Origin: a virus
Taxonomy: Duplodnaviria; Caudoviricetes
Virus record (IMG/VR): IMGVR_UViG_3300045921_000263
Location: 1-52,182 of that record
DNA length: 52,182 nt
Strand: one strand, 5' to 3'
The notes under the pieces were generated by a model. That model worked only from the letters and a program-made list of their open reading frames with translations. It made no database searches and was not told the DNA's origin. The translations under genes were made by a program, and so were the position numbers. Below are positions 10,334 to 51,245 of this stretch, in pieces (position 1 is the first letter of the stretch; each line of letters starts with the position of its first letter).

Positions 10334-10336
10334 AAT

Positions 10337-25084: not shown

Positions 25085-26935
25085 ATGAAAACTCAGGAGC
25101 AACGAAAAATGTATGGTCCAACAAATCCGGACTGCGATCTTGTCCACGCAGAAAAGTATCGTGGGGAGAACGAAACGTTTCGGGAAGCTGTCAACCGCTG
25201 GTCAGGTTTTTTGCAAGATAACCATGATCACTACATGAGCTTTCGGGAAATCTGCCTGTATCAGCGATTCATGCCACCGGGTCGTGTTCAGGCAGGAGCA
25301 GGTTCTCTTAAGAATGTGACACTCTATAACTGCTTCGTGATGCCTACAATTCACGACAGTTTCACAGATGGTCCCAGCAAAGAAGAGCTGGCTCAGCTGA
25401 AACCCGGTGAACACGCGCCTCTCTCGATCATGGATACAGCAAAGAATGCTGCTATCACCATGCGTCAAGGTGGCGGCGTTGGCTACGACATCAGCACATT
25501 GCGCCCTGCTGGAGATCTCATACGAGGCGTTCAGAGCACCACAGATGGTCCTCTTGCCTTTGCACCAATTTATGATGCTATCTGCCGAGCGACCTCTTCT
25601 GCTGGCAACAGGCGTGGTGCACAGATGCTCGTGATGCGGGTTGACCACCCTGACATCGAAGCCTTCATCCGAGCGAAGCAAGTCTCCGATGATAGCATTC
25701 CATGGGATATGCGTCCGCTCCGCGGCTTCAACATGTCGGTCGCAGTTACTGACAAGTTCATGGAATGTTTGGCTTCTGGCAAGCCATTCCCTCTCCAGTT
25801 TGGCGGAAAAGTCTATCGCGAAGTTGATCCCCATGCCTTGTGGGACATGATCATGCGAGGAACCTACGACTGGGCAGAGCCTGGGGTTCTGTTCATCGAT
25901 CAGATCAATCGTATGAACAACCTCTACTACTGCGAGACGATCGCAGCAACTAATCCTTGTGGTGAACAGCCTCTACCTCCCTACGGAGCCTGTCTCTTGG
26001 GCAGCTTCAATTGGGTGAAGTATCTCCTCAAGGATACTGATGGAAAGTTCTACTTTGATTACGATCTGCTCGCAGCGGACATTCCGCATGTTGTTCGTGC
26101 TATGGACAACGTGATCGATCGTAGTCGTTATCCTCTGCCTCAGCAGAAGCTGGAAGCCCAGAGGAAGCGTCGAATGGGTCTTGGTCACACTGGTGTTGCC
26201 AATGCTCTGGAGGCCATGGGCTATCCCTATGGAAGTCCCGGGTTCTTGGAAATGGAAGACGAAATCATGTCTTTCATTACCAATAAGTGCTATCAGGCTT
26301 CGGCACAACTGGCAGCTGAGAAAGGTAGCTTCCCGCTCTATGATGAAGAGCGCTACATGGCCAGCGAATTCATCAGTGGTCTTTGGGAAGAGACCAAGGA
26401 CATGATCCGGAAATACGGCATCAGGAACAGTCATCTGACCTCGATCGCACCGACTGGCACAATCTCATTCACCGCTGACAACGTGTCGTCTGGGATTGAA
26501 CCTGTCTTGGCCTATGAACAGTCTCGTCGTGTGATCGTTCCCGGTGGTCATCGCATCGTGACTGTTCCAGACTATGGTGTCGCACATTTGGGTGTGAAAG
26601 GTAAGACTGTAGTCTCTGGTGAAATCACCGCCGCCGAGCATATCGGCGTTCTCTGCACGGCCCAGATGCACATCGACTCTGCGTGTTCCAAGACCGTGAA
26701 TGTCCCGACCAACTTCTCCTTCGATGAGTTCAAGAACTTGTATCTAATGGCTTACGAAGGTGGAGCGAAGGGCTGCACAACGTATCGCCCTGCTGGCAAA
26801 TATGACGAGCCAATTCAGGCTTCTAAGAAAGAAATTCAAGCAGACCGAGATGAGCTGGTCAGCTTGGAAGATGGCGGAACTTGTAGCTGGGATCCTGTAA
26901 CGGGTCAGCGAAAAGGTGCCTGTGCTAACGACTAA
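25085..26935 (+). CDS. nrdJ: class II (B12-dependent) ribonucleotide reductase
   Basis: NCF, GGGVG, RRGAQM, TNPCGEQPL, IAPTGTIS, SKTVN; C-terminal Cys pair; no small subunit nearby. Confidence 0.9.
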   Translation: MKTQEQRKMYGPTNPDCDLVHAEKYRGENETFREAVNRWSGFLQDNHDHYMSFREICLYQRFMPPGRVQAGAGSLKNVTLYNCFVMPTIHDSFTDGPSKEELAQLKPGEHAPLSIMDTAKNAAITMRQGGGVGYDISTLRPAGDLIRGVQSTTDGPLAFAPIYDAICRATSSAGNRRGAQMLVMRVDHPDIEAFIRAKQVSDDSIPWDMRPLRGFNMSVAVTDKFMECLASGKPFPLQFGGKVYREVDPHALWDMIMRGTYDWAEPGVLFIDQINRMNNLYYCETIAATNPCGEQPLPPYGACLLGSFNWVKYLLKDTDGKFYFDYDLLAADIPHVVRAMDNVIDRSRYPLPQQKLEAQRKRRMGLGHTGVANALEAMGYPYGSPGFLEMEDEIMSFITNKCYQASAQLAAEKGSFPLYDEERYMASEFISGLWEETKDMIRKYGIRNSHLTSIAPTGTISFTADNVSSGIEPVLAYEQSRRVIVPGGHRIVTVPDYGVAHLGVKGKTVVSGEITAAEHIGVLCTAQMHIDSACSKTVNVPTNFSFDEFKNLYLMAYEGGAKGCTTYRPAGKYDEPIQASKKEIQADRDELVSLEDGGTCSWDPVTGQRKGACAND

Positions 26936-26991: not shown

Positions 26992-27045
26992 TCGAGCATT
27001 GGCCGCAAGCTGCGACCAAGCAATAGCTCAGAAATGGAGTCACCG

Positions 27046-27708
27046 ATGACCGATGCCATCACTTTCCTTGACAAGTCCTACACTCGTGCCGACCTTGAAA
27101 GCATGACTGACGAAGCTCTCCTGGAGCTCAGGAACCTCGTTGCTTCCAATCTCGGCGTTGCTTCTGTGAAAGGCTTCAAGGACCACACGACCGCTGTTGA
27201 GCAAACCCTCAAAGCTCTCAAGAAATATGAAGCCTCTGCTGAACCGGATGAAGAAAAGCCGGTGAAGCAACCCAAGGAGCGCAAACTGGCGAAGCCTGCA
27301 GAAGCTCAGCATGTCAAGCGGCCGACCCGGAAAATGTTCTCCGTGATGAAAATCGTGAAGCCGTTCGATGGCCAAGAAGATCGCTCTCACCGTTCCGGAA
27401 ACTACAGGGATGGTATGATGATCATCGAGGCGATCGAAGGTGAAGGCACTCTCGCTTGGGACATCTACAACTGGGAGAAGCAAGGCTACGTCCAGGTGAT
27501 CGAGCCCACTGAAGAGGAATATGCACAGCGTCGCGCTGCGTGGTATAAGGAGAAGGGTCGCGAAGACCCTGATGTCGCGAAGATCCGTATGCGTGAAGAG
27601 CGTGAGAAATCCAAAGCTGAGCGAGAAGCTGAGCGAGAAGCCAAGAAAGCTGAACGGGAAGCTGCCAAGGCTGCGAAGAAAAACGCCGAAGCTCAGGCTG
27701 CCGAATAA
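27046..27708 (+). CDS. hypothetical protein with charged helical C-terminus
   Basis: GGAG RBS before ATG 27046 (alternative start 27034); biased codon usage; coupled to next gene. Confidence 0.7.
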   Translation: MTDAITFLDKSYTRADLESMTDEALLELRNLVASNLGVASVKGFKDHTTAVEQTLKALKKYEASAEPDEEKPVKQPKERKLAKPAEAQHVKRPTRKMFSVMKIVKPFDGQEDRSHRSGNYRDGMMIIEAIEGEGTLAWDIYNWEKQGYVQVIEPTEEEYAQRRAAWYKEKGREDPDVAKIRMREEREKSKAEREAEREAKKAEREAAKAAKKNAEAQAAE

Positions 27709-28595
27709 TGATTATTGAACGCATCAATGCGTTCTTTGAGTATCTCAATGAACGCGAAAACGTCCGCCTTCGAAAGGAGGCGGGCGATTTCTTTCCGTGG
27801 ACTGAGGATGAGATCCTCAGAACCTATAAGTTCACCAACGTTCGGCGTCAACACGACCGGACCAGCATGGAGCTTAGAGAGCGTTTCTACACACCACACT
27901 ACGAAGATGACAATCGCTCAATCTTGATGAACTGTGCCACATACCGATATTTCGGGACGTGGGAGTTCGCTTCTGCTATTGGATGGCAATCGTATGATGA
28001 CTTCGATTTTGATATGATCGAAGAAATCGCAACAGATCGTCTCAACAACAGAGAGCGTGTTTTCACAGGTGCATATGTCATTACAAATCAAGGGATTCCT
28101 GCCCCAAAACAGGAAGTTGTGGTGCATTATTTTCTCAAGGCTCTTTGGAAAGCGACGCCGGAGATCGTAAATCTAGCTCAGACCACACAGTCTTGGGAAC
28201 AGGTCGCCAAGCGCATGATGAGGCTGAATGGCTTCGGAGGCACTGGCTTCATGACCAAAGAAGTTCTCTTGGACACGACCTACACTGGCTTCTGGAAAGG
28301 ACGCCAGCTCAATGAGCACATGTCTTTCCCGATTGACTGGTTCAAATGGACCCCAATCGGCCCAGGAGCTCTCCGTGGTGCGGCTCGTGTCCTTGGGGAC
28401 GATCAGGCTAAGCCACTCAAGAACGAGCAGGCTTTTCAGTGCATCATGGAACTTGTGAACTTACAGCACCTGTTCTTCAAGCACGATTTTGAACTTTCAC
28501 CGACGGATATTCAGTTCGGTCTGTGTGAGTTCGACAAGTATGAGCGTGTTCGTCTTGGACAAGGAAAGCCGAGAAGTAGATACAATGCTCCCTGA
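27708..28595 (+). CDS. aGPT-Pplase1 / 5-hmdU DNA kinase helical-domain protein (DNA-glycosylase-like fold)
   Basis: ERE.VR..K..G...PWT.D.IL..YKFTNVRR..DR, FTGAY, GPGA.RG, DIQ..LCEFDKY.R motifs; no Walker A. Confidence 0.8.
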   Translation: MIIERINAFFEYLNERENVRLRKEAGDFFPWTEDEILRTYKFTNVRRQHDRTSMELRERFYTPHYEDDNRSILMNCATYRYFGTWEFASAIGWQSYDDFDFDMIEEIATDRLNNRERVFTGAYVITNQGIPAPKQEVVVHYFLKALWKATPEIVNLAQTTQSWEQVAKRMMRLNGFGGTGFMTKEVLLDTTYTGFWKGRQLNEHMSFPIDWFKWTPIGPGALRGAARVLGDDQAKPLKNEQAFQCIMELVNLQHLFFKHDFELSPTDIQFGLCEFDKYERVRLGQGKPRSRYNAP

Positions 28596-28794
28596 CTCTA
28601 TTTTCTGGATTCTACTCTACTGGCTGATCATGTGGGCAATGTTCCTACAGTGGTATAGCCAAGAAGTAGAATCCGGACAAAGACCCAAGATGAGCTGGCT
28701 CATTCTAGTGCTGACATTCCTATTCGTCGGCTTTGTTCCATTATTGTTCCTTTTCTTTTCTATAAAGAAAGCTATAGAAAAGACAAAACGATAG
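28585..28794 (+). CDS. small two-TM membrane protein
   Basis: Two hydrophobic segments, basic C-terminus. Confidence 0.5.
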   Translation: MLPDSIFWILLYWLIMWAMFLQWYSQEVESGQRPKMSWLILVLTFLFVGFVPLLFLFFSIKKAIEKTKR

Positions 28795-28823
28795 TTGTCT
28801 TTTGTGTGCCCCAGCTATATGCT
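28782..28823 (+). promoter_or_regulatory. phage promoter for glycosyltransferase operon
   Basis: GACAAAAC-N5-TTGTCT-N17-TATGCT. Confidence 0.65.
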
Positions 28824-28856
28824 GGGGCTCATACTGTATAACTCGAGGAAGCTAAC

Positions 28857-30143
28857 ATGAAGATAGCTGTAGCCCTCCATTCCTGCATGGATCTTGGAGG
28901 TATTATCAATCACACAGAGCAACTGATCGGCGGTTTTCAAGACCTAGGACATGTAGCTCATCTGTATGAGCTTGTCTACGCCGACAACGCAATTACTCAA
29001 ATTCGCTCTGGTGATTTTGAGTTCAACGGACCTAGTGGAATTCCGTTCGCTCAGGGTAAGGGCTGGAATTTTCACAAATCTGCACGTCTGTCCTACAAGA
29101 CCTCTCCTGGGCTTGTGAACGCAAAGCACATTTTGAGCCAGTATGATATCGTCATCTGGACAGTGCCTGTTCCTCCCAAGAACAGGCAACAGCTCGGCAA
29201 CGATAAATGGCCAGAACTCTATGATCTTGATCCTAGGATCAAGCAAATTGCTTTCATTCATGATGGTAACGCTAGGAGTAATTCTCTCCATCTATATCAT
29301 GTTGCAGAGCACATCTCTGGTCTTGCCTGTGTTCACGAATGTGCACTCAACTCTGCTGATATTTTCCCTATCCCGCGCGCGCTGGTATTGAACCCACAGT
29401 TCATGCCAATTCGTGAATACCCAGAGTGGGATGACAAGTTCACTGGCTTCGTAAACATGCAGACATTCAAAGCATGGAAGCATGTTCATGAGCTCATTCA
29501 GGCTATTGCCTACATGCCGCCCAAAGAACCGGGCGAGCTGCGGGAAGTCGCTGGTAAAGGGATCGAGTATCAGTATATGACCTCGATCGACAAATGCAAA
29601 GAGATTTACTACCACAACGACCCTGAGAAGCCTTTTCATGGGCGCAAGTTCTGGGACGTTGCTCTCGAGAACGGTATGAAGCATCATGACTATTGGCCAA
29701 CACCAGATGTAGACGAATGGCTAAAGATGGCCCGAGTTTTGGTAGATCCGAGCTGGTCTGCGAAATACAGTGCCATTGGTGGTCACTGGAACAGAGTAGC
29801 TGTTGATGCCATGATCCGCGGTGCGGTGCCTGTTGCACAGAAGCGTGGTATGGGAACTTCTCTGTTCAAGCCCAAAGTTCATTACGTTCCGCTGGATGGT
29901 GCGCGAGATGCTCAGGATTATGCAGATATTGTTCTAGAGACAGGACACATGTCTGCAATCCAGGCTCGTAGTTTCCAGGAAGCTGCTCGTGAACTTCTGC
30001 CGCAGTTTGATCGAAAGGCGATTGCTCGTCGTGTTATCGATCTAGCAAACGGCGAAGTAGAAACTGAGATCGGAGCTGCCGATCCAGATCTGCGTGAGAA
30101 GTTCGAAAATCAGATGTTCGATCACTTTGGAATTATCGCATGA
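28857..30143 (+). CDS. GT-B fold glycosyltransferase (putative DNA-modifying)
   Basis: MKI.......D.GGI N-terminal loop, FIHDG, F..WK, and VDPSW......WNRVAVDAMIRGAVPVA nucleotide-sugar-binding signature variant. Confidence 0.75.
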   Translation: MKIAVALHSCMDLGGIINHTEQLIGGFQDLGHVAHLYELVYADNAITQIRSGDFEFNGPSGIPFAQGKGWNFHKSARLSYKTSPGLVNAKHILSQYDIVIWTVPVPPKNRQQLGNDKWPELYDLDPRIKQIAFIHDGNARSNSLHLYHVAEHISGLACVHECALNSADIFPIPRALVLNPQFMPIREYPEWDDKFTGFVNMQTFKAWKHVHELIQAIAYMPPKEPGELREVAGKGIEYQYMTSIDKCKEIYYHNDPEKPFHGRKFWDVALENGMKHHDYWPTPDVDEWLKMARVLVDPSWSAKYSAIGGHWNRVAVDAMIRGAVPVAQKRGMGTSLFKPKVHYVPLDGARDAQDYADIVLETGHMSAIQARSFQEAARELLPQFDRKAIARRVIDLANGEVETEIGAADPDLREKFENQMFDHFGIIA

Positions 30144-31168
30144 AAGTCATCACAGCGCGCGGTGTGAACGATGCTATCCTTCTTGGGCTTTCTTTGCTGA
30201 AAGTCGAAGGTGTAGATCGAGAATCCAGAAATGGTCCTGTTCGGGTGTTTCCAGGACCCGTTACTACTCACTATCAGCATCCGGAGGAGCGTGTTCTATT
30301 TCACCCAGAAAGGGACGCGAACCCATACTTCCATTTCATGGAAAGCCTCTGGATGCTATCTGGAAGACGTGATGTAGAATGGATCAGCCGATTCTCTAGC
30401 AACATTGCAAACTACAGCGATGACGGAGTCACTTTTCATGGTGCTTATGGCTATCGCTGGCGAAACTGGTTTGGAGTATGCGAATATTTGCCTGACGGCA
30501 CAATTCGCGAACTTGGCAAAATCAATCAGCTTGCCACAATCGCCAACATCCTGAAATCTGATCCAGATGATAGACGAGTAGTTCTCCAGATGTGGGACGT
30601 TTGTCAAGATCTTGGACGTGATGGAAAGGATTTTCCATGCAATGTAGTCGCAACGTTCCGCATTAATCCCTACGGCAAATTGGACATGACCGTCTTCAAT
30701 AGGTCAAACGATATGATCTGGGGTGCCTATGGCGCGAACGCTGTTCACTTCTCAATGCTCCAAGAAGTAATGGCATCTTGGATCGGTGTGCCGATGGGTG
30801 GCTACTGGCAAGTGAGCACAAACTTCCATAGCTACCATTCAACTCTTGAGAAGCACTCTAAGCTGATTGGTATCTGTCCTGGATTTGATCCATACGAGCT
30901 AGGCGAAGTTCGGCCTATTCCTGTCGTCAATGGCCCAATAGAGCAGTGGTTTCAAGATCTGCACATGTTCATGGAGGTAGGTCCCGCCATTGGGTTCAAG
31001 GACAAGTTTTTCAAGAAAACAGCAGTTCCGATGCTACAGTCTTGGGAAATGTGGAAAAACGCTGAAAGCCCGAAACGCATTGAAAATGCGATGAGATATG
31101 CCAGTGAGATCGAAGCGCCAGATTGGCGTAGGGCCTGCCTAGAATGGCTAGATCGGAGAAAGAAATAA
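30140..31168 (+). CDS. thymidylate-synthase-family dUMP hydroxymethylase (putative)
   Basis: SRNG, D.PCN catalytic Cys, RSND..WG..GAN with Asn at the dUMP-specificity position, NFH.Y; M6/YuA-type subfamily. Confidence 0.8.
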   Translation: MKVITARGVNDAILLGLSLLKVEGVDRESRNGPVRVFPGPVTTHYQHPEERVLFHPERDANPYFHFMESLWMLSGRRDVEWISRFSSNIANYSDDGVTFHGAYGYRWRNWFGVCEYLPDGTIRELGKINQLATIANILKSDPDDRRVVLQMWDVCQDLGRDGKDFPCNVVATFRINPYGKLDMTVFNRSNDMIWGAYGANAVHFSMLQEVMASWIGVPMGGYWQVSTNFHSYHSTLEKHSKLIGICPGFDPYELGEVRPIPVVNGPIEQWFQDLHMFMEVGPAIGFKDKFFKKTAVPMLQSWEMWKNAESPKRIENAMRYASEIEAPDWRRACLEWLDRRKK

Positions 31169-31716
31169 TGTATGATGATATCGTCTGCGATGTAACTCGC
31201 ATCAAATTCGCTCGAGAAGGTGCTTCAGTTCTTCGCACACATACTCAATCTGGGATTGGTCCACACTTCGTCGGAATGCACACTTTCAACATGATCACCA
31301 TGTTGAAGATCCTTCACCCTAACCCTTCTATCAACCTCGTTTGGGCTGTTATGGAGCATGATATCCCAGAGAGAATGACAGGCGATATACCACATCCTGC
31401 AAAGAAAGCTGGTCTAGTCAATCATGATCAGCAGTCTGCATTTGAAAAACATCTGAAAATCGCTGTATTTGGAGAAGATCATCTTAGCCAGCTCAGTGAA
31501 GAAGATCTGAAATGGCTTAATGGTCTGGACATGTTAGAATTCTATTGCTGGTGTAAGGACCAGATAATGATGGGAAATCGCATGATGGAAAGAAAACTTC
31601 ATGCGGTCGAAAACTATATGGAACAATACAAGTTCATGTATCCAGAAAAGATTGTGGACACCTATTACGCAATCCGCAGTCACAACTGGCAAACAATGTC
31701 TGATATCGGAGGTTAA
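31168..31716 (+). CDS. HD-domain nucleotidase (YfbR-like)
   Basis: V.R.H, V..H, HD.PE..TGD.P, D.LE motifs. Confidence 0.75.
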   Translation: MYDDIVCDVTRIKFAREGASVLRTHTQSGIGPHFVGMHTFNMITMLKILHPNPSINLVWAVMEHDIPERMTGDIPHPAKKAGLVNHDQQSAFEKHLKIAVFGEDHLSQLSEEDLKWLNGLDMLEFYCWCKDQIMMGNRMMERKLHAVENYMEQYKFMYPEKIVDTYYAIRSHNWQTMSDIGG

Positions 31717-32321
31717 TGATGTCCAATGACTATGTTGCTCAAGAAGGAGGAGATCATTATCAGGCAGATTACCAGCACTGGGATTGGGTGATTGACTGCA
31801 AGGTTCACTATCTAGCTGGCAACTGCACCAAGTATCTCTCGCGCTGGCAGAAAAAGAACGGCGTAGAAGATCTTCGCAAGGCGATGTCATATCTAGAAAA
31901 GATGATAGTCGTCAGAAAGAAAAGTCCAGACTATGTATTCAATCACGGGGCACCGGACATTGTTCGTATCTGCACAAATCGTCTTTGTGAAAGTCTTGGC
32001 TTGAATGATATTGAGCGCAGTATCTTTGAACTTGTTTCTGGTCCTTGTTCAATGAAAATGCTGTTGCTTGCATACAGCCAGTTGAAAGAACTAATTACGA
32101 CCTCTCAGATGGCCGTAGAGGCGCAGCTTGGCACTGCCGCACCTGCACCACATGGCCCGGCTTCAAGGCCGCCAGAGGACGTCCCTGGACGTGTCTGTGG
32201 TGCTATTACCAAGGCACCTATGCCCAGCGCGTCCACAGGCGTCGCAAGAAAGCCTTCTCTCGGCATGGAACATCCGTTTGGCTATGATGAAGCAGCAGAA
32301 CTAGGCTTTAGGAAAGAATAA
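31716..32321 (+). CDS. DUF3310-like nucleotide-modification-associated protein
   Basis: Q.GG.HY, Q.WD, GN..KY..R...KNG.EDL.KA..YL motifs; low-complexity tail encoded by element D. Confidence 0.75.
   Translation: MMSNDYVAQEGGDHYQADYQHWDWVIDCKVHYLAGNCTKYLSRWQKKNGVEDLRKAMSYLEKMIVVRKKSPDYVFNHGAPDIVRICTNRLCESLGLNDIERSIFELVSGPCSMKMLLLAYSQLKELITTSQMAVEAQLGTAAPAPHGPASRPPEDVPGRVCGAITKAPMPSASTGVARKPSLGMEHPFGYDEAAELGFRKE
32097..32200. repeat. dispersed phased element D
   Basis: ACGACCTCTCAGA.GGCCG.TAGAGG nearly identical to left arm of element B; GGCTTCAAGG on right; GA at 32099/32108/32118. Confidence 0.65.
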
Positions 32322-34396
32322 TGGTCGTTCGCACAAAAACGAATCCAAATAATGGAGGCTGTCTCCAACTTGGGTTTTTCATGCCAGAGGCGAGCTGGCG
32401 TCCTCCTTCAATTTCAGATCTCCCTTCTTGGAAGGGCGCAAAAAGAATAGCGATTGATGCCGAAACAAGAGACCCTAGTATCGTTGCGAATCTAGGATCT
32501 GGTTCTATAAGAGATGGGTATACTGTAGGATGGGCCTTCGCAATCGAAGGAGGGCCGAAATACTACCTACCAATTCGTCACGAAGGAGGCGATAATCTCC
32601 CAGTAGAACAGGTTCTGCACTACCTGCGAGAACAGATCAAAAATTTCACTGGAGAGTATGTGGGAGCTAATCTCGCATACGATGTTGATTATGGATACAA
32701 TGATGGGTTTGAATGGCATCCTGATGCGACTTTTCGAGATATTCAAATTGCAGATCCTCTGATTTACGAGCTACACCGAAGCTATTCTCTCGAAAATATC
32801 GGCAAGCGAAATGGTGTTGAAGCTAAAGATGAGCGACTCTTGATAGAAGCAGCAGAGGCCTTTGGCCTTGATCCAAAAGCGGGACTGTGGAGACTACCTG
32901 CACGATATGTCGGAGCCTATGCAGAGAATGATGTGACATCTCCGCTAGAAATTCTACGCATACAAGAGAAGCGTATCGACCAAGAAGGCCTACGGAAAAT
33001 CTGGGACTTAGAAAGTCGCACTCTGCCTGTGCTAGTTCGTATGCGCCGACGTGGTGTTCGCATAGATTTTGACAAGCTCATTCAAATCGAAGAATGGACT
33101 AAAGTTGAAGAACAGGCTGCTCTTGACCTGATTCGTCGACATACTGGTGTCAGAGTTGCATTCGGTGATGTGTGGAAAGCCTCTGCTCTTGCTCCTGCGT
33201 TAGAGGCTATCGGTATGCGTCTGCAAAAAACAGCCCAAGGACAGCCACAGATTGACCGCTTCCTCTTGGGTGGAAGTAATCATCCTGTTTGTGAGGCAAT
33301 TCTCCGTGCTCGAAAAGTGAACAAGATTCGCACAACTTTTGCTGAGAGCATCAGAAAGTATGCAGTCAACGGAAGAATTCATTGCTCTTTTCGTCAGATT
33401 GCATCAGAAACTGAGAGCGGAGAGCAGAAAGGTGTTCGCTATGGTCGTCTTTCTGCAATTGACCCAAACCTTCAGCAACAGCCTAGCCCGGATCGAGACC
33501 CAGAAATCGCAGGTGAATGGCGCAAGATCTTCATCCCAGAAGAAGGTGCGATCTGGGGCTGCAATGACTATTCTCAGCAAGAGCCCAGATGGACGACGCA
33601 TTTCGCAGCTGTGATGGACTTGCCTCGTGCTCGTGAGGCTGCCCTGCGCTACCAGAACGATCCCAACACTGATAACCACGAGATGATGACCAGATTGGTC
33701 TACACAGATGCTCAAGTTGAAGAATGGCTAGCAAAAGATCCAAAGGCTTTCAAAGTTCATCGTGGATATTCAAAGAACATCTTTCTTGGACTTTGCTACG
33801 GTGAGGGTGGAGCAAAGCTCTGTCATGATATCGGCAAGCCTACTCGCTGGTGTGTTTTCTATGGTATTGGTGCTGATCGACGTGTAGAGTATTTCGAAAA
33901 TCGTCGAGAAGCCATGGATTACAGAAACCAAATCGGAAGAGGACATATTCGTGAAGTTGCAGGTGAAGAAGGTCAACAGATCCTAGACAATTTCGATGCA
34001 GAAGTGCCATATGTGCGCCAGCTTGCTAGAGCGGCGACAAGAAGAGCAGAGATGAAAGGCTACGTTAGAACTATTCTTGGTCGCAGGCTCAACTTCGAGC
34101 AGCGAGAGGACGGTTCCTATGACTATACGCACAAGGCGCTGAACAGGATTATTCAGGGGAGCAGTGCAGATCAAACGAAGCTCGCTATTTGTGAGCTTGA
34201 CAGAGCAGGTTATTTTCTTCAGTTGCAAGTTCATGACGAGACTGATGGAAGCTATTCCTCAGTCGCCGAAGCAAAAGCAGCAGGTGAAGTGATGCGTGAC
34301 TGTATCTTGAGCATGGTTCCTGGAAAGCTGTGGGTTCCTTTCAGAGTTGACACAGAGGTTGGACCTTCCTGGGGTGAAATCAAAGGTGTGAAATGA
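32321..34396 (+). CDS. DNA polymerase, family A
   Basis: D.ET exonuclease motif, GRLS..DPNLQQ, DYSQQEPR, K...LG..YG.G, N..IQGS.AD, QVHDE. Confidence 0.95.
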   Translation: MVVRTKTNPNNGGCLQLGFFMPEASWRPPSISDLPSWKGAKRIAIDAETRDPSIVANLGSGSIRDGYTVGWAFAIEGGPKYYLPIRHEGGDNLPVEQVLHYLREQIKNFTGEYVGANLAYDVDYGYNDGFEWHPDATFRDIQIADPLIYELHRSYSLENIGKRNGVEAKDERLLIEAAEAFGLDPKAGLWRLPARYVGAYAENDVTSPLEILRIQEKRIDQEGLRKIWDLESRTLPVLVRMRRRGVRIDFDKLIQIEEWTKVEEQAALDLIRRHTGVRVAFGDVWKASALAPALEAIGMRLQKTAQGQPQIDRFLLGGSNHPVCEAILRARKVNKIRTTFAESIRKYAVNGRIHCSFRQIASETESGEQKGVRYGRLSAIDPNLQQQPSPDRDPEIAGEWRKIFIPEEGAIWGCNDYSQQEPRWTTHFAAVMDLPRAREAALRYQNDPNTDNHEMMTRLVYTDAQVEEWLAKDPKAFKVHRGYSKNIFLGLCYGEGGAKLCHDIGKPTRWCVFYGIGADRRVEYFENRREAMDYRNQIGRGHIREVAGEEGQQILDNFDAEVPYVRQLARAATRRAEMKGYVRTILGRRLNFEQREDGSYDYTHKALNRIIQGSSADQTKLAICELDRAGYFLQLQVHDETDGSYSSVAEAKAAGEVMRDCILSMVPGKLWVPFRVDTEVGPSWGEIKGVK

Positions 34397-35100
34397 GATA
34401 TGGAGTTTTGGTGAACGGAGACTTCGAAGAAAGATCTCTCATTAAAATGACCGCTCCGGGTTTCTCTCGTCCCATGTTGGGACGTAGCGGAACTTATGAC
34501 GAATATGTCATGAAAGAGATCAATCGAAGCTACGGCAAGCTAGATGTGAAAAATCGTGTCGTTTTGGACATCGGTGCAAATATCGGCTGTTTCTCTCTTT
34601 GGGCTTTGGGCAAAGGAGCTAGACATGTGATCTCTTTAGAGCCAGAATTGAATAACTTCAATATGCTGGAGCTGAATTTGAAAGATGAGACTAACTTCTC
34701 TCTTTACAACGAAGCCCTAGCCGCTGATAAAGATGGAGAAGGTATTCTCTATCTCAGCAAAACTGGCAAAAATCCTGGGAATTCAAGCACAACACCTCGT
34801 CGAGGCCGGATTGGAGTTTTGATCAACTACATGTCTGTAGCCCAACTCAAAGAATACCATCCGGATATAGATGTAGCGAAAGTTGACTGTGAAGGCGCAG
34901 AGTATGATTTCATGAAAACTCTGGTCGAAGCATATCCAAATATGCGACAGGTAGCACTAGAAATTCACATCAGTGGTTTTGGACTTCTAGCTGCAATCTC
35001 TTTGCATAACCTGATGCTTGATGCAGGCTTCACTGCTATTGTTCCACCACGGCTAGATAATGAGAGTCTTTGGCAAACTCTAGCGACATATGAAAGATGA
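34393..35100 (+). CDS. FkbM-family SAM-dependent methyltransferase
   Basis: VLDIGANIG.FS, EP...N...L..N, KVDCEGAEY, EIH. Confidence 0.85.
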   Translation: MRYGVLVNGDFEERSLIKMTAPGFSRPMLGRSGTYDEYVMKEINRSYGKLDVKNRVVLDIGANIGCFSLWALGKGARHVISLEPELNNFNMLELNLKDETNFSLYNEALAADKDGEGILYLSKTGKNPGNSSTTPRRGRIGVLINYMSVAQLKEYHPDIDVAKVDCEGAEYDFMKTLVEAYPNMRQVALEIHISGFGLLAAISLHNLMLDAGFTAIVPPRLDNESLWQTLATYER

Positions 35101-35647
35101 GAAAATGCAGCATGTGATGCTTGATCTTGAGACATGGGGGACAAAGCCGGGCTCTGCTCTGCGTTCTATCGGCATGGTCCAGTTTGATCCTTTCTTCCCA
35201 GGATTCGGGAAAGAATTCTACTGCAATATTGATGATGAAAGTCAGCTCGCAATCGGTGCTATCAAAGACCAAAAAACTGTTGAATGGTGGACGCAGCAGA
35301 GTAAGAAGGCGCTAGAAATTCTAGAAGTAGAAAAGCTCAATGTTCATGATGCTTGCGACAGAGTGATCCAATATTTCAATGAGACAGGAGTTTCCATTGT
35401 TTGGGCACAAGGTTCCAATTTTGATCCTGTGCTTCTTGAAGCAATCTTTGACATGGCTGGAAAAGTCGTGCCATGGAAATTCTACAATACTCGAGACACT
35501 CGCACTATCTACAGCGTAGCAAACTATGACACTAGAAAGATGCCTCGCGTTGGTGAACATCACAATGCTCTAGAAGACGCAAAGCATCAAGTTCGGTGTG
35601 TCTATCGCAGCTACCAAATCCTTCACAATAGGGAGAAAGATCAATGA
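35090..35647 (+). CDS. DEDDh 3'-5' exonuclease
   Basis: HVMLDLET, SIG.V.F, TVEWW..Q, W..G.NFD, RDTRT, HNAL.DA. Confidence 0.85.
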   Translation: MKDEKMQHVMLDLETWGTKPGSALRSIGMVQFDPFFPGFGKEFYCNIDDESQLAIGAIKDQKTVEWWTQQSKKALEILEVEKLNVHDACDRVIQYFNETGVSIVWAQGSNFDPVLLEAIFDMAGKVVPWKFYNTRDTRTIYSVANYDTRKMPRVGEHHNALEDAKHQVRCVYRSYQILHNREKDQ

Positions 35648-36114
35648 TCCTGAGTGGTCGAACCATTCAGCAGCTCAAAATCATGGAGCCATTCTATGGC
35701 AGAACACGCCATAAGGGCATGACTTTTGGGTGTGGACCAGCAGGCTATGATGTTCGCGTAGAGTTCGATGAGAATGGCATCACAGATGCTGTTCAACTCC
35801 TTCCAGGTCAATTCCTACTGGCCTCTACGATCGAGCGTTTCAGGATGCCCAGAGACGTTATCGGAATCGTGCATGACAAATCTACTTGGGCTCGTCTTGG
35901 TCTTGCTTGTCAGAACACGGTGATTGAGCCAGGATGGGAAGGATGGCTCACTCTTGAACTGACTAATCATGGTCATGAACCTCTTACAATCGAGCGTGGA
36001 ATGCCAATCGCTCAAGTGATATTTCACTTCGTAGACGATGATACTATTGGCTATGAAGGAAAATATCAATCTCAAAAGCGTGGACCTGTCAGGCCCATCA
36101 TTGAGAAATGTTAG
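35644..36114 (+). CDS. dcd: dCTP deaminase (trimeric dUTPase superfamily)
   Basis: PAGYDVR, KSTWARLG, IEPGW.G.LTLEL.N, IAQ, Y.GKYQ.Q. Confidence 0.8.
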   Translation: MILSGRTIQQLKIMEPFYGRTRHKGMTFGCGPAGYDVRVEFDENGITDAVQLLPGQFLLASTIERFRMPRDVIGIVHDKSTWARLGLACQNTVIEPGWEGWLTLELTNHGHEPLTIERGMPIAQVIFHFVDDDTIGYEGKYQSQKRGPVRPIIEKC

Positions 36115-36116
36115 AC

Positions 36117-36145
36117 TTGTGCCGCATATGGCGCTAAGGTAGGCT
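36117..36145 (+). promoter_or_regulatory. putative promoter
   Basis: TTGTGC-N17-TAGGCT in intergenic gap. Confidence 0.55.
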
Positions 36146-36176
36146 AAAAGCCAACCTCTAGAACCTGGAAAGTCTA

Positions 36177-36623
36177 ATGTCAGAAAGAAGCATGAAAGGG
36201 ACGTTGGTCAAGTGCCTGTCCCCGTTGGATGCCGTTGCCATTGAATCACCGATGACTGGCCTCGGCATTCCAGACATAAACTACATCGGTGGATGGATCG
36301 AATGCAAGGCTCTGAAAGCATGGCCCAAAGGAGCAGACAAGAATCCAGTGAAGTTTCCACATGCATGGACAAAAGAACAGCAAGTCTGGGGTTACAGACG
36401 TGAAAGAGCTGGCGGAGTTTCACTTGTATGTGTCAAAGTCAGCTCATCATGGTTTTTCTATTCAGCGACCACATTGAAGGTGAATAACTTATGGGACAAT
36501 ATGACAAGACCACAGATGTATCAGTGGGCACTGAAGGTTTTCGAAGTATCTCTACCGCAGAGGGAGCTGTGCGAATTCCTGACCTCACTCCGTCGGACCT
36601 CAGTCCTGCAGAGCACCTTCTAA
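36177..36623 (+). CDS. PD-(D/E)xK nuclease, Holliday junction resolvase/VRR-NUC-like
   Basis: G.PD....GWIECK, Q..W...R...GG motifs. Confidence 0.75.
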   Translation: MSERSMKGTLVKCLSPLDAVAIESPMTGLGIPDINYIGGWIECKALKAWPKGADKNPVKFPHAWTKEQQVWGYRRERAGGVSLVCVKVSSSWFFYSATTLKVNNLWDNMTRPQMYQWALKVFEVSLPQRELCEFLTSLRRTSVLQSTF

Positions 36624-43454: not shown

Positions 43455-43808
43455 ATGTCGTATGGTATCTACACTTGGGAGTTGGAAGAACTGACTGTTT
43501 TCAACGCCCTTGATGACAAAGAACCAAAGAAAGTCAACGTTGAGTTTGTTCTTGTCTGCACTGATCCAGGCACGCCAGAAAGTGGAAGATTCGGTCCGCC
43601 GGAATTCTATGATCCAGGTGAAGCTCCCACATGGGAAATCGAGAGCATTCAGATCATCTTTGAAAATTCTCCTCCTCTTGGCATTACCGAAAATCAATTC
43701 ATGGAATTATTCCCAAGAGGAGACAGTATAATTGACATGGCTATCGAATGTGCTCTTGACAACGGTATTGTAGAGTCTGAATCCGATCCGGAGCCTGATT
43801 ACGAATGA
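43455..43808 (+). CDS. hypothetical acidic protein
   Basis: GGAGG RBS; GPPE..DP.E.P motif. Confidence 0.65.
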   Translation: MSYGIYTWELEELTVFNALDDKEPKKVNVEFVLVCTDPGTPESGRFGPPEFYDPGEAPTWEIESIQIIFENSPPLGITENQFMELFPRGDSIIDMAIECALDNGIVESESDPEPDYE

Positions 43809-44326
43809 ATTTGTTCGTGCTTGACGAAGATCCAGCCGCTTCGGCGGCTGGACTTGACGATAAACGCATTGGCAGTGCCCTGCGTGAAGTCAACCAGATG
43901 ATGTCTACTGCGCTTGCTCAGAGCGGCGTAGAGGGCGCTAGCGTAGGGCCGGGGCTGCTATGCCGCCCAAGCCATCAACGCCATCCAGTGACGCTCTGGG
44001 TGGGCCAGACAAGCGGCAATTTTGCGTGGGCATACGCCTATGCAATGGCGCTCATTAAAGAATGGCAACTCCGCTACGGAACATGGCATAGCTCTAGCGA
44101 TAGAACACCATACATATGGAGATTTAGGACTTGCATTCCTCAAGGCCCTCTGTTACCGTTCCAAAATAGCGCGAGACACGGTGGATTGGGGCTTGACTTC
44201 ACGCATCTGCCAGTTCCAGAATCATACCGAGCGTATATTCAGGAGCGCTGGCTGACAGACAAACGGCCTCCGACCTACACGAATCGGGAGTGGCCTGAAT
44301 GGGTGAGCTGGAACCAAAAAGCATGA
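43805..44326 (+). CDS. pyrimidine-dimer glycosylase / endonuclease V-like protein
   Basis: MN.F.LD.DP..SA..L.DK....E..QM.ST, H..HP.T.W, EW..RYG..H motifs. Confidence 0.7.
   Translation: MNLFVLDEDPAASAAGLDDKRIGSALREVNQMMSTALAQSGVEGASVGPGLLCRPSHQRHPVTLWVGQTSGNFAWAYAYAMALIKEWQLRYGTWHSSSDRTPYIWRFRTCIPQGPLLPFQNSARHGGLGLDFTHLPVPESYRAYIQERWLTDKRPPTYTNREWPEWVSWNQKA
43912..44000. repeat. dispersed phased element E
   Basis: CTCAGAGCG...CGCTCTGGG arms; GA at 43921/43931, TC at 43975/43984/43995. Confidence 0.6.
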
Positions 44327-49794: not shown

Positions 49795-50001
49795 ATGACG
49801 AAGTTTAAGTTCGCTCCTCGTGAAATCAAAACCAAAGAGGAGCTGCACCTGCTCGCTTTCTACGCCTACTTGCAGTATTTGCACGAAGGCTTTGAGGTGA
49901 CGATTTGCAAGCTGGGCGTGGCGCGGGGTGCTTCGTTCAGCCGCAACCAGCATCCTTTCAACGGGCTGCGTGGGGTTGAAAAGCCCAGCATCTACGCTTG
50001 A
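49795..50001 (+). CDS. hypothetical protein (monocistronic)
   Basis: AGGAGG RBS, own promoter and terminator. Confidence 0.65.
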   Translation: MTKFKFAPREIKTKEELHLLAFYAYLQYLHEGFEVTICKLGVARGASFSRNQHPFNGLRGVEKPSIYA

Positions 50002-50005
50002 AGAC

Positions 50006-50043
50006 AAAGGACCGAGTCGGGTTATCCGACTCGGTCTTTCTTT
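50006..50043 (+). terminator. intrinsic terminator
   Basis: GACCGAGTCGG-GTTAT-CCGACTCGGTC then TTTCTTT. Confidence 0.8.
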
Positions 50044-50052
50044 GGGTTGTTT

Positions 50053-50299
50053 GTTCATCTTCATCTTCATCTTCGTTTTTGAAGATGAAGAAGACTGGAC
50101 GAAGAAAAGAAGACCGGACGAGCGATTCGACCGAGTCGATCAAAACGACCGAGTGGACGAAAACGACCGAGTGGACGAAAACGACCGACGATGAAGACGA
50201 CCGAGCGAGTGGAAACGACCGACGAGGACGAAGAGACCGACGAAGACGAAGAGACCGACGAGGCCGAGACCGACGAGGCCGAGACCGCCGAGGCCTAGA
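50053..50299. repeat. low-complexity block 3 with GACCG tandem array
   Basis: (TTCATC)3 then GAAGAT tract; GACCG at 50129, 50147, 50165, 50183, 50199, 50217, 50235, 50253, 50268, 50283. Confidence 0.85.
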
Positions 50300-50303
50300 A
50301 CCT

Positions 50304-50359
50304 GGGGGCCGGGGGCCGGGGGCCGGGGGCCGGGGGCCGGGGGCCGGGGGCCGGGGGCC
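50304..50359 (+). repeat. (GGGGGCC)8 perfect tandem repeat, G-quadruplex-capable
   Basis: Eight exact 7-bp copies. Confidence 0.95.
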
Positions 50360-50415
50360 ATTGGCTACCTATGGGCAACGCTTAGTTGCCTAATGGGCAA
50401 CGTGCTGCCCTAATT

Positions 50416-50444
50416 TTGCCGTATTTGCTTGCCATACCTATCCT
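50416..50444 (+). promoter_or_regulatory. sigma70-like promoter lacking the GACAAATA box
   Basis: TTGCCG-N17-TATCCT. Confidence 0.6.
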
Positions 50445-50496
50445 TGCCTAGGGGCGGCATGGGGCCGCTACCAGGCACTAGCAAAGGGTCAAAGCA

Positions 50497-50922
50497 ATGG
50501 CTACCACCCCCACCGGCGCCACCGGCGCCTCCACCGGCGCCACCGGCGCCACCACCGCCAAGGCCAAGGCCAAGGCGCCCACCCCCACCGTGGCCAAGGC
50601 CACCATGGCCACCGCGCCCACCGCGCCCACCGCGCCCACCGCGCCCTTGTTCGTGGTCGGCCCGTGGCCGGTCAAGGCTCAGGGCGGCAACTCCATCAGG
50701 GCCTACTGCTACAAGGTGGCCGTGGCGTTGCAGGCGCAGCACCCCGGCGGCTTTACGCTGGCCCAGTATGCCAGCGCCCTTGCGGCCAGCGCCGCTGGTA
50801 GCAACATGCGTCAGCCCGGCACGGGGTGGGGTACGGCGGCCAAGCCCAACGGCGCGGCCTACGCGCACGCCAACTGGTTTGCCCACCCCAAGCAGGGGTG
50901 GCTGGCCCCGGCTGGCAAGTAG
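50497..50922 (+). CDS. hypothetical basic Ala/Thr/Pro-rich protein with no Asp or Glu
   Basis: Promoter, AAAGGG RBS, strong third-position G/C bias, downstream hairpin. Confidence 0.7.
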   Translation: MATTPTGATGASTGATGATTAKAKAKAPTPTVAKATMATAPTAPTAPTAPLFVVGPWPVKAQGGNSIRAYCYKVAVALQAQHPGGFTLAQYASALAASAAGSNMRQPGTGWGTAAKPNGAAYAHANWFAHPKQGWLAPAGK

Positions 50923-50930
50923 CGGCCACC

Positions 50931-50954
50931 GGCCCTGCCCTACGGGGCAGGGCC
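50931..50954 (+). terminator. hairpin after Asp/Glu-free gene
   Basis: GGCCCTGCCC-TACG-GGGCAGGGCC perfect 10-bp stem; no U-tail. Confidence 0.5.
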
Positions 50955-50975
50955 ACTACCCCCAAGGGGATGAAC

Positions 50976-51077
50976 ATGCACAACGTGCTGATACCGCTAG
51001 CAGCAGTGGCCCTTGTGGCCTATGCCCTAGCGCCAACTGTTGCCAAGCTGGCAACAGTGGCGCTAGTGTTGCCTTAA
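50976..51077 (+). CDS. 33-aa hydrophobic peptide
   Basis: AAGGGG RBS; MHNVLIPLAAVALVAYALAPTVAKLATVALVLP; followed by hairpin 51087-51122. Confidence 0.45.
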   Translation: MHNVLIPLAAVALVAYALAPTVAKLATVALVLP

Positions 51078-51245
51078 GGCCACACCCCGCCCTAAGCACG
51101 GCTAGGCCGCGCTTGGGGCGGCAGGCCGCCCTCGATCTACCGTCTCTCCACACCCACCCCAGACTCACTACAAAAGAACTTTACGATCCCCAATCACCTC
51201 CTATTACCCTTGCATCAATTATCAACTCAAGTATACCTATAGAAC

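Follow-up and report, generated by a model that had tools for sequence, protein, structure and literature searches.

A candidate sugar branch of thymidine hypermodification encoded beside a predicted dUMP hydroxymethylase in an uncultured siphophage genome

By which chemistry would a phage derivatize 5-hydroxymethyldeoxyuridine (hmdU) in its DNA if it carries a glycosyltransferase (GT) gene and lacks the kinase and transferase genes of amino-acid-based hypermodification? The question is raised by the IMG/VR virus record IMGVR_UViG_3300045921_000263 (52,182 bases, linear), the whole of which was analyzed here (hereafter, the window), and specifically by the genes at 27708-36114, where a protein of the helical HMUDK_hel family, a GT of the GT-B fold, and a thymidylate-synthase homolog are encoded in this order. 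Glycosylation of hydroxymethylcytosine (hmC) in T-even phages, amino-acid-derived thymidine hypermodification, and base J of kinetoplastids are already known. A first-pass annotation of the window had proposed a new pathway, in which hmdU is incorporated into DNA and then glycosylated there, possibly with a methylated sugar. We regard a two-stage thymidine hypermodification (i.e., incorporation of hmdU, followed by its glycosylation on DNA after replication) as the probable reading of the locus, with the chemistry predicted. What the analysis establishes are gene identities, the active-site signature, gene absences, the fold, the synteny, and the alternation of cassettes. The predicted steps of hmdUMP synthesis and GT-B glycosylation are supported by residue signatures and gene context; which acceptor and sugar donor are used, what HMUDK_hel does, and on what an FkbM-family methyltransferase acts are what we infer.

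The thymidylate-synthase homolog and the kinase route

The synthase homolog is approximately 50% identical to the enzymes of Yuavirus and of Bordetella phages. Among solved proteins, its best relative is MilA, a CMP hydroxymethylase (E 5.7e-19), with Escherichia coli ThyA behind (E 3.5e-12). In a HMMER alignment, residues D164, C167, D191, and N200 of the window protein align with L143, C146, D169, and N177 of E. coli ThyA. Position 143 is bulky in methylases (L143) and acidic in hydroxymethylases, the D169 position is occupied by Asn in 5-hydroxy-dCMP synthases, and the N177 position distinguishes uracil (Asn) from cytosine (Asp) as the substrate base (PMC13326640). On these criteria, the D-C-D-N residues of the window protein point to a uracil substrate and a hydroxymethyl product, and not to a 5-hydroxylase. 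MilA has Asp in the N177 column, where the window protein has Asn; T4 gp42, added as a control, has a gap there, and the comparison with cytosine enzymes rests on the MilA alignment. The same signature was found in 107/107 aligned homologs of the fetched loci, including those of MP1412, Sonora, and RHph_TM26 (the two locus sets behind this count overlap, and some contigs are counted twice). At the level of sequence, then, the synthase homolog carries a dUMP-hydroxymethylase signature.

These residues bear on the plainest alternative, namely, that an ordinary thymidylate synthase is encoded, that it leaves the DNA canonical, and that the nucleotide-metabolism genes cluster here by coincidence. 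Its match is indeed to PF00303, and many database records call its homologs "thymidylate synthase," but an Asp takes the place of the water-excluding Leu143 (PMC13326640). Among named relatives, the nearest are hydroxymethylases from the M6 group, phages with hmdU-derived bases in their DNA (PMC8989533, cited passage), and an HMUDK_hel gene always lies beside the synthase homolog. We therefore consider an ordinary synthase very unlikely.

Profile searches for the genes of the known route returned nothing from the window. Neither the P-loop 5-hmdU DNA kinase (PF18748) nor the amino-acid:DNA transferase (AADT; PF18724, formerly aGPT-Pplase2) had a match in the window or in any of five relatives that are 97-100% complete, while the kinase was recovered in 3/3 kinase-type phages (MP1412, RHph_TM26, and Sonora) and MP1412_10 scored E 1.5e-46 for PF18724 in the same library. 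Radical SAM gave 0 matches in the window. Across five records (the window and four relatives), PALP, the pyridoxal phosphate (PLP)-enzyme family tested, had no match over the cut-off (one sub-threshold match, 10.3 bits), and neither the Tet/JBP thymidine dioxygenase family (PF12851) nor the Epimerase family was found. Nmad5 was absent from Pfam scans of the 30 window open reading frames (ORFs) tested. The first-pass annotation had recognized no kinase, AADT, PLP-dependent decarboxylase, or radical SAM gene in the window, and the profile searches bear this out (0 matches over the cut-offs); the near-complete relatives, too, yielded neither of the two genes that could lead to a known amino-modified base. 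Among the profiles that it proposed for searching, PF18723 and PF05050 matched and PF18724 and PF18748 gave 0.

The glycosyltransferase and its slot

The window GT is barely visible to sequence profiles. Its match to PF00534 (E 8.6e-4; 19.3 bits) lies below the 26.4-bit cut-off, with no other Pfam family at E values up to 5, and it has neither a PHROG family nor a tblastn match in 50,697 phage records at 1e-5; the GT family is without a cultured phage member. A set of metagenome proteins contained 234 homologs at E <= 1e-3 among 3,640 candidates, many of which carry PF00534 or PF13692 in precomputed annotation; the best 120 of the 234 are 51-99% identical to the window GT, and many lie on contigs of 59-67 kb. 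An AlphaFold model built from a 28-sequence alignment (pLDDT 92.1, pTM 0.90; the single-sequence model reached a pLDDT of 32.3) has the two-Rossmann GT-B fold, and its first Foldseek match is the T4 DNA alpha-glucosyltransferase (AGT; 1y6f_B, E 3.0e-12, TM 0.58/0.63). When the GT profile was run against PDB sequences, solved GT4 enzymes were matched in the C-terminal nucleotide-sugar region only. The closest neighbors in a protein language model are all viral clusters, one of which is an AGT cluster of PF11440, and we treat this as a lead only.

Gene order is more informative. Relatives of the GT are encoded at 33 IMG/VR loci. HMUDK_hel lies a short way 5' of the GT in 31/31 loci with upstream sequence (L006 and L027 begin at the GT), and the synthase homolog lies just 3' of it in 32/32 loci with downstream sequence (L023 ends inside the GT). 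The order is kept even in L032-L034, in which the GT is 34-40% and the family A DNA polymerase (PolA) 30-34% identical to the window proteins. For a broader comparison, a search of IMG/VR for HMUDK_hel gave 559 pattern matches, of which 469 were confirmed and the best 80 kept; all locus counts given here are of contigs, several of them near-duplicates, and not of independent lineages. By tblastn, the best 80 of these 469 loci comprised 28 with the GT family, 3 with the kinase (a tally made by tblastn and not by profiles), 1 with AADT, and 45 with HMUDK_hel and the synthase homolog accompanied by none of these three.

ORF clustering resolved the content of the slot between HMUDK_hel and the synthase homolog in the 72 loci with at least one ORF there. 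The GT-B protein was present in 27 loci and a protein of 254-284 aa in 34, adjoining the synthase homolog in most of them; no locus had both, and 11 had neither. All of these shorter proteins (34/34; best E 7e-27) match TAGT (PF20691), a family that matched neither the window GT nor anything else in the window and four relatives (0/5 records). One TAGT member tested matches 653 phage records, and among the 30 matches listed, most are annotated as beta-glucosyl-HMC-alpha-glucosyltransferases or glucosyl transferases beside dCMP hydroxymethylase. Since the slot before the synthase homolog holds the GT-B protein or TAGT but never both, one position is filled alternatively by the GT-B or by a family known to glycosylate phage DNA. 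We take this to be the decisive comparison, in which the GT is the positional analogue of TAGT only. Together with the coupling of its gene to the hydroxymethylase gene, this alternation gives contextual support for transfer onto DNA, and we predict that the GT is a 5-hmdU DNA glycosyltransferase.

The slot also bears on whether the GT acts on DNA at all. Its substrate might instead be a protein (of the virion or the host), a nucleotide, or a glycan of the cell envelope, in which case the virion DNA would contain plain 5-hmdU, as in SPO1 or SP8. The other top structural matches are GT4-like enzymes, most of which use lipids, small molecules, and polysaccharides as substrates; in sequence, the weak match points to the generic Glycos_transf_1 family, and some homologs are labelled "glycosyltransferase involved in cell wall biosynthesis." Against such a substrate, translational coupling ties the gene to that of the hydroxymethylase within a replication module, and the gene keeps this position in every related locus and alternates with a DNA glycosyltransferase family at the same slot. 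Furthermore, no relative was confirmed in 185,579 species genomes by a scan that covers short conserved peptide patterns only, and the nearest language-model neighbors are viral. A substrate other than DNA thus seems to us quite improbable.

Some loci have neither type of GT. A 323-354-aa protein with no Pfam family (ORF cluster c5) occurs in L093 (9887-10858) and L102 (1072-2052), and also in L094, L095, L097, and L101, accompanied by radical SAM or FkbM or, in L101, by a kinase-like match. It may represent a third kind of hmU-modifying enzyme (hmU, 5-hydroxymethyluracil).

HMUDK_hel, tailoring genes and the proposed pathway

The window HMUDK_hel matches PF18723 over profile positions 4-277 of 281, with 125.1 bits against a 25-bit cut-off, and is 27.8-30% identical to its Sonora and M6 homologs. 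Cys273-Glu274, within the stretch LCEFDKYER, is invariant across 21 HMUDK_hel sequences, and the M6 gp55 type has the motif as well. With 4951 representative clusters at E <= 1e-3 (1011 at E <= 1e-30), the family is very large, and its members are mostly stand-alone proteins of 280-310 aa; among 10 long representatives, one carries an HhH-GPD domain and one ankyrin and C1 domains, and none carries a GT or a kinase. In kinase-type phages, the kinase gene lies upstream of HMUDK_hel (adjoining it in MP1412 and Sonora and separated from it by one small ORF in RHph_TM26), and in MP1412 and Sonora, HMUDK_hel is followed by Nmad5 and then the synthase homolog. In SP10, gp186 is a kinase fused to a Pplase-type domain (PMC5889632, cited passage). 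HMUDK_hel is not a mere remnant: it is the sole constant partner of the synthase homolog over all cassette types, and its Cys-Glu pair is invariant. Its role is probably a general one, the handling of hmU in DNA for whichever enzyme derivatizes the hydroxyl group.

Given this constancy, HMUDK_hel could itself be the true group-transfer enzyme, its Cys-Glu pair attacking C6 of hmU as in amino-acid:DNA transferases. The GT-B would then only activate the hydroxyl group (a sugar or sugar-phosphate serving, for example, as the leaving group) or elongate a group already in place, and the final base would be no simple O-glycoside. The invariant pair, set in D-I-[QE]-x-x-L-C-E-F-D-K-Y-E-R in the 21 sequences and in the M6 gp55 type too, speaks for this idea, as do the size of the family (4951 clusters) and the presence of HMUDK_hel in kinase, TAGT, GT-B, and other cassettes alike. 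The motif also resembles the E-T-x-L-C catalytic stretch of AADT/PUGT, in the solved examples of which the catalytic Cys247 follows the metal-binding Glu243 by four residues (PMC11472151, cited passage), and MAFFT placed the Cys in the same column. Homology to AADT was nevertheless unsupported (hhalign probability 0.2%, both against one sequence and against a three-sequence profile), and a profile search of PDB sequences revealed neither PUGT nor another relative. T-even phages, which by annotation have TAGT beside dCMP hydroxymethylase, are not known to encode HMUDK_hel, and on chemical grounds a glycoside is a poor leaving group. We judge group transfer by HMUDK_hel to be unlikely.

A few HMUDK_hel domains occur in unusual settings: P0125 (525 aa, from a marine eukaryote transcriptome of the MMETSP), in which no second domain was found; P0260 (1045 aa), with ankyrin and C1 domains; and P0191 (420 aa), an HhH-GPD base-excision fusion. 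The DNA of dinoflagellates is rich in hmU, for which reason the eukaryotic cases may deserve attention.

The FkbM gene is a variable companion. Across the 33 GT loci, it lies after PolA in 11 and between HMUDK_hel and the GT in 4 (L028-L030 and L032), and it is out of view in 18. Counted over all cassettes, FkbM lies between HMUDK_hel and the synthase homolog in 7 loci (4 with GT-B, 2 with TAGT, and 1 with neither). Radical SAM genes occur with each cassette type (4 loci with GT-B, 4 with TAGT, and 4 with neither), and in L028-L030, FkbM is separated from the GT by a radical-SAM/SPASM gene. The resulting sister-clade cassette (i.e., HMUDK_hel, FkbM, radical SAM/SPASM, GT-B, and synthase homolog; L028, 6284-8004) also occurs in L029, L030, L064, L065, and L067, and it implies a more elaborate tailoring of sugar or base than in the window. 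Three TAGT loci (L066, at 9895-10845, L068, and L073) carry a gene for an NAD-dependent epimerase/dehydratase (PF01370, E 1.8e-51) in the stretch from HMUDK_hel to TAGT, which suggests a phage-made, nonstandard NDP-sugar donor in those phages. In the metagenomic siphovirus MW202657.1 (L035/L036), FkbM overlaps the stop codon of the DNA polymerase gene, and a gene annotated as "pyrimidine hmase" is followed by one for a 415-aa protein with no Pfam family.

From these elements, we propose the following scheme. The dCTP deaminase would supply deoxyuridine nucleotides, and the synthase homolog would convert dUMP to 5-hydroxymethyl-dUMP. Host kinases, joined by the DUF3310 protein as a candidate nucleotide kinase, may carry hmdUMP to hmdUTP, and the HD nucleotidase-like protein may deplete competing dTMP or dNMP. 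PolA would incorporate 5-hmdU into DNA, where the GT-B would glycosylate the polymer's hmdU residues at their 5-hydroxymethyl group, giving a base-J-like nucleobase. The donor is presumed to be a host NDP-sugar, since the phage encodes no sugar-nucleotide gene. HMUDK_hel would recognize or process hmU in DNA for the derivatizing enzyme (i.e., the kinase in M6 and the glycosyltransferase here), and FkbM would provide optional tailoring, most simply as an O-methyltransferase acting on a sugar hydroxyl.

Several observations weigh against parts of this scheme. Although VIA, too, ranked T4 AGT first for the GT model (Z 25.3, rmsd 3.8, 341-342 residues aligned, 12% identity), TarM (Z 24.8), 6eji (24.5), and PimA (24.3) fall within the tie margin of 1 Z. 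Membership of the AGT sequence family PF11440 was absent from the Pfam scan at E values up to 5, and hhalign of the 28-sequence GT profile gave T4 AGT a probability of 5% (E 0.0073, 53 columns) and returned nothing for T4 BGT. The GT is mildly acidic (pI 6.15), and its charge is uninformative. FkbM was found in 3/5 complete relatives and is absent from the other two; in the window, it follows PolA and thus lies outside the HMUDK_hel-to-synthase cassette, and in L102 it occurs with neither type of GT, so that a sugar target is not required and hmdU itself or another group is possible. T4 AGT and BGT are not known to need a helical partner, and the role that we assign to HMUDK_hel is therefore a guess. 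In the cited passages of PMC8989533, the kinase activity of SP10 gp186 survives C-terminal deletion down to the kinase domain alone, and M6 gp55 is dispensable for the product in vitro. Finally, the record is 82% complete (CheckV); because the kinase search was sensitive enough to recover all three kinase-type phages, an M6-type route is unlikely to hide in the missing 18%.

On balance, the first-pass proposal that hmdU is incorporated and then glycosylated on DNA draws support from the signature of the synthase homolog, the absent kinase route, T4 AGT as the nearest structure, and TAGT in the same slot. Its suggestion of a methylated sugar gains some backing from the 7 loci with FkbM inside the cassette and loses some from the two complete relatives that lack this gene. 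A bolder joint reading is possible but doubtful: HMUDK_hel and the hydroxymethylase would form the fixed frame of a plug-in island, carried by many uncultured siphophages, whose slot takes a kinase/AADT set, TAGT, an AGT-like GT-B, FkbM, radical-SAM, or unassigned genes; the product here would be an O-methylated glycosyl-hydroxymethyluracil, and all derivatization of hmU would share HMUDK_hel as a Cys-dependent enzyme. If this reading were true, the product would be the first virus-made base-J-like nucleobase formed by a pre-replicative route, made by a GT family with no cultured or solved member.

Gene module and related phages

The genes of the window lie on the + strand nearly throughout, and those at 27708-36114 do so without exception (ORF list, Pfam, and PHROGs; Table 1). 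The nearest named relatives of the record are siphophages of the Mesyanzhinovviridae type (i.e., Yuavirus/M6, Bordetella FP1/CN1, PaMx11, and "phage Simon"), with identities of approximately 50-57% for the polymerase and the synthase homolog; PolA itself shares 50-57% identity with its counterparts in phage Simon, PaMx11, and the Bordetella phages. At the nucleotide level, megablast of the 9.2-kb region against 50,697 phage records gave no match.

Table 1. Features of the hypermodification module in the window and counterparts in phage PhiJL001
Feature	Genome	Position or gene	Strand	Evidence
Ribonucleotide reductase large subunit	Window	25085..26935	+	PF02867 E 2.4e-102
Conserved 224-aa protein	Window	27034..27708	+	No Pfam or PHROG family
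HMUDK_hel protein (M6 gp55 / PhiJL001 gp19 type)	Window	27708..28595	+	PF18723 E 4.4e-36
Candidate 54-aa membrane peptide ORF	Window	28630..28794	+	Translation, one strongly hydrophobic stretch
GT-B glycosyltransferase, 428 aa	Window	28857..30143	+	AlphaFold GT-B fold; PF00534 below cut-off
Thymidylate-synthase homolog (predicted dUMP hydroxymethylase)	Window	30140..31168	+	PF00303 E 2.8e-21; phrog_5131 E 1.6e-122
HD-domain YfbR-like 5'-deoxynucleotidase candidate	Window	31144..31716	+	phrog_6047 E 5.1e-32; PF12917 E 3.4e-4, below cut-off
DUF3310 protein	Window	31716..32321	+	PF11753 E 2.2e-7
PolA, family A DNA polymerase	Window	32321..34396	+	PF00476 E 6.8e-39
FkbM-family SAM methyltransferase	Window	34393..35100	+	PF05050, 34.2 bits vs 22.7-bit cut-off
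Rv2179c-like 3'-5' exonuclease	Window	35090..35647	+	PF16473 E 1.3e-41
dCTP deaminase, also dUTPase-like	Window	35644..36114	+	PF22769 E 2.7e-24; PF00692 E 7.3e-6; phrog_1663 E 3.7e-49
HMUDK_hel	PhiJL001	gp19		Pfam E 1.5e-45
TAGT PF20691	PhiJL001	gp22		Pfam E 2.7e-53
Nmad5	PhiJL001	gp23		Pfam E 1.7e-16
Synthase homolog	PhiJL001	gp24		Pfam E 2.2e-20
HD/YfbR-like	PhiJL001	gp25		Pfam E 1.9e-05, below cut-off

Every gene named by the first-pass annotation is present. Two of them, the GT and the HD hydrolase, fall below the Pfam cut-offs, the former resting on its fold and the latter on PHROGs and positional counterparts that are clearly YfbR-like (L033, E 1.4e-19; MP1412_17, E 2.6e-9). Its order needs correcting, since the gene starting at 27708 encodes HMUDK_hel and not the synthase homolog, which comes third, after the GT; it also left out the Rv2179c-like exonuclease between FkbM and the deaminase, which is a matter of context and stands outside the modification chemistry. 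The translational couplings that it described, GT to hydroxymethylase and PolA to FkbM, are real ATGA overlaps (30140-30143 and 34393-34396, respectively). The DUF3310 protein is matched by PHROGs labelled "nucleotide kinase" (e.g., phrog_236, E 1.4e-13), and we infer that it is a candidate nucleotide kinase for hmdUMP. The T7 gp1.7 protein is a nucleotide kinase of this kind.

Upstream, the ribonucleotide reductase (RNR) gene is syntenic with those of MP1412 and PhiJL001 and provides an upstream landmark for the nucleotide-metabolism module. The 224-aa protein that follows has a tail rich in Lys, Glu, and Ala, and its stop codon overlaps the HMUDK_hel start as TAATG (27706-27710). It lies just 5' of HMUDK_hel in 26/33 GT loci (tblastn); where 2 kb or more of upstream sequence is available, only three distant GT loci (L032-L034) gave no match. 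The stretch from HMUDK_hel to the GT contains the 54-aa ORF and then, near 28812-28836, a GC-rich hairpin that lacks a T-run and was unflagged by the terminator scan; four related loci (L047 and L049-L051; cluster c6) have an ORF of 77-78 aa in the same gap. Promoter-like and terminator-like sites at 27000-36500 showed no excess over the shuffled expectation.

Other genes in the replication half of the record, as identified by Pfam, encode an SNF2 helicase, Pam3 gp32-34-like proteins, and a RecD-like helicase besides the RNR, and the window further encodes a DUF5906/VapE primase-helicase, a DNA ligase, and a pyrimidine-dimer DNA glycosylase. The last of these (43805-44326; PF03013, E 1.8e-6) resembles T4 endonuclease V and would fit a sunlight-exposed phage at the sea surface. 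The G+C content is 0.585 at 50001-52000 and 0.539 at 1-2000, compared with 0.44-0.52 over the rest of the record, and the last ORF runs off the end of the record.

Comparison with known systems

If the predicted chemistry is right, thymidine hypermodification includes a branch leading to a sugar, independent of the kinase/AADT chemistry that the characterized pathways (M6, ViI, PaMx11, PhiW-14, and SP10) use. Such a branch appears to be widespread, given that the 234 GT homologs lie mostly on contigs of approximately 60 kb and that the GT occurs in 28, and TAGT in another 34, of the best 80 of 469 HMUDK_hel loci. Glycosylated DNA should resist many restriction enzymes and be shielded from host nucleases, and it may in turn be a target of modification-dependent nucleases. 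An hmU-specific DNA glycosyltransferase would serve the tagging and mapping of 5hmU as T4 BGT serves those of 5hmC. The comparison of cassettes also gives the HMUDK_hel (M6 gp55) family a testable role, for which PhiJL001 offers a cultured phage for direct examination.

A literature search of titles, abstracts, and cited passages gave no report of glycosylated hmU in phage DNA, and the literature examined, partly as abstracts and passages, contained no description of the HMUDK_hel-GT-hydroxymethylase architecture or of the window GT family. The nearest reports come from metaviromes, in which viral contigs were described with a GT-A enzyme or a T4-BGT-like GT-B beside a thymidylate-synthase homolog, along with clades of thymidine dioxygenases accompanied by GTs (bioRxiv 10.1101/2023.12.21.572611; PMC13229309; cited passages). 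In those passages, the pathways are framed as sugar modification of cytosine or as involving dioxygenase-made 5hmU, and the GT-B enzymes are BGT-like, whereas that of the window is AGT/GT4-like. The terms "HMUDK," "aGPT," and "TAGT" are absent from the main text of bioRxiv 10.1101/2023.12.21.572611.

The M6/Yuavirus system (also represented by PaMx11 and ViI) consists of a dUMP hydroxymethylase, the 5-HMUDK kinase, an amino-acid:DNA transferase, and tailoring enzymes. The window shares its phage backbone and gene order (RNR, HMUDK_hel, and the synthase homolog, with HD, DUF3310, PolA, deaminase, and primase-helicase genes), its hydroxymethylase (approximately 50% identity), its HMUDK_hel (approximately 28% identity), and, by prediction, post-replicative modification on 5-hmdU. 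It differs in that the kinase/AADT set is absent and a GT-B lies between HMUDK_hel and the synthase homolog, and the predicted product is a sugar adduct and not an amino-acid-derived one.

With the T-even phages, the window shares a hydroxymethylase of the thymidylate-synthase family (gp42 in T4) acting on the nucleotide pool and, by prediction, a DNA glycosyltransferase acting on the polymer. Two solved AGT entries (1y8z and 1y6g), according to their titles, contain DNA with an HMU base. The modified base is hmC in T-even phages, whereas that of the window would be derived from uracil (Asn at the ThyA N177 position). The window also has a siphophage backbone with PolA, and it has an HMUDK_hel partner, which T4 is not known to encode.

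The closest parallel in culture is PhiJL001 (Keylargovirus), a phage of Alphaproteobacteria that gave the best cultured match of the TAGT member (42.9% identity). It is a marine siphophage of approximately 60 kb in the Mesyanzhinovviridae, and both the architecture and the order of its module resemble those of the window. In the 2004 annotation of its record, gp22 is already named as a glucosyl transferase and gp24 is compared with the SPO1 dUMP hydroxymethylase, and the PF18748 kinase is absent from its complete genome. Unlike the window, PhiJL001 has TAGT in place of the GT-B (the two families are unrelated), carries Nmad5, and has no FkbM in the annotated stretch. A few genes 5' of its hypermodification cluster, gp16 (L122, 4293-4871) matches PF18909, the N-terminal domain of dATP/dGTP diphosphohydrolases (E 1e-22). 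With this architecture already present in cultured PhiJL001 in a TAGT version, the pathway has more precedent than the first-pass annotation held.

Base J of kinetoplastids, made by the JBP1/2 thymidine hydroxylases and JGT, belongs to the product class predicted for the window (i.e., glycosylated 5-hydroxymethyluracil in DNA). There, hmU arises through a Tet/JBP dioxygenase, whereas a pre-replicative synthase homolog would provide it in the window; JGT is grouped with GT-A enzymes (bioRxiv 10.1101/2023.12.21.572611, cited passage), while the window GT is an AGT-like GT-B. For the phage, genome-wide substitution would be expected in place of the sparse marks of base J.

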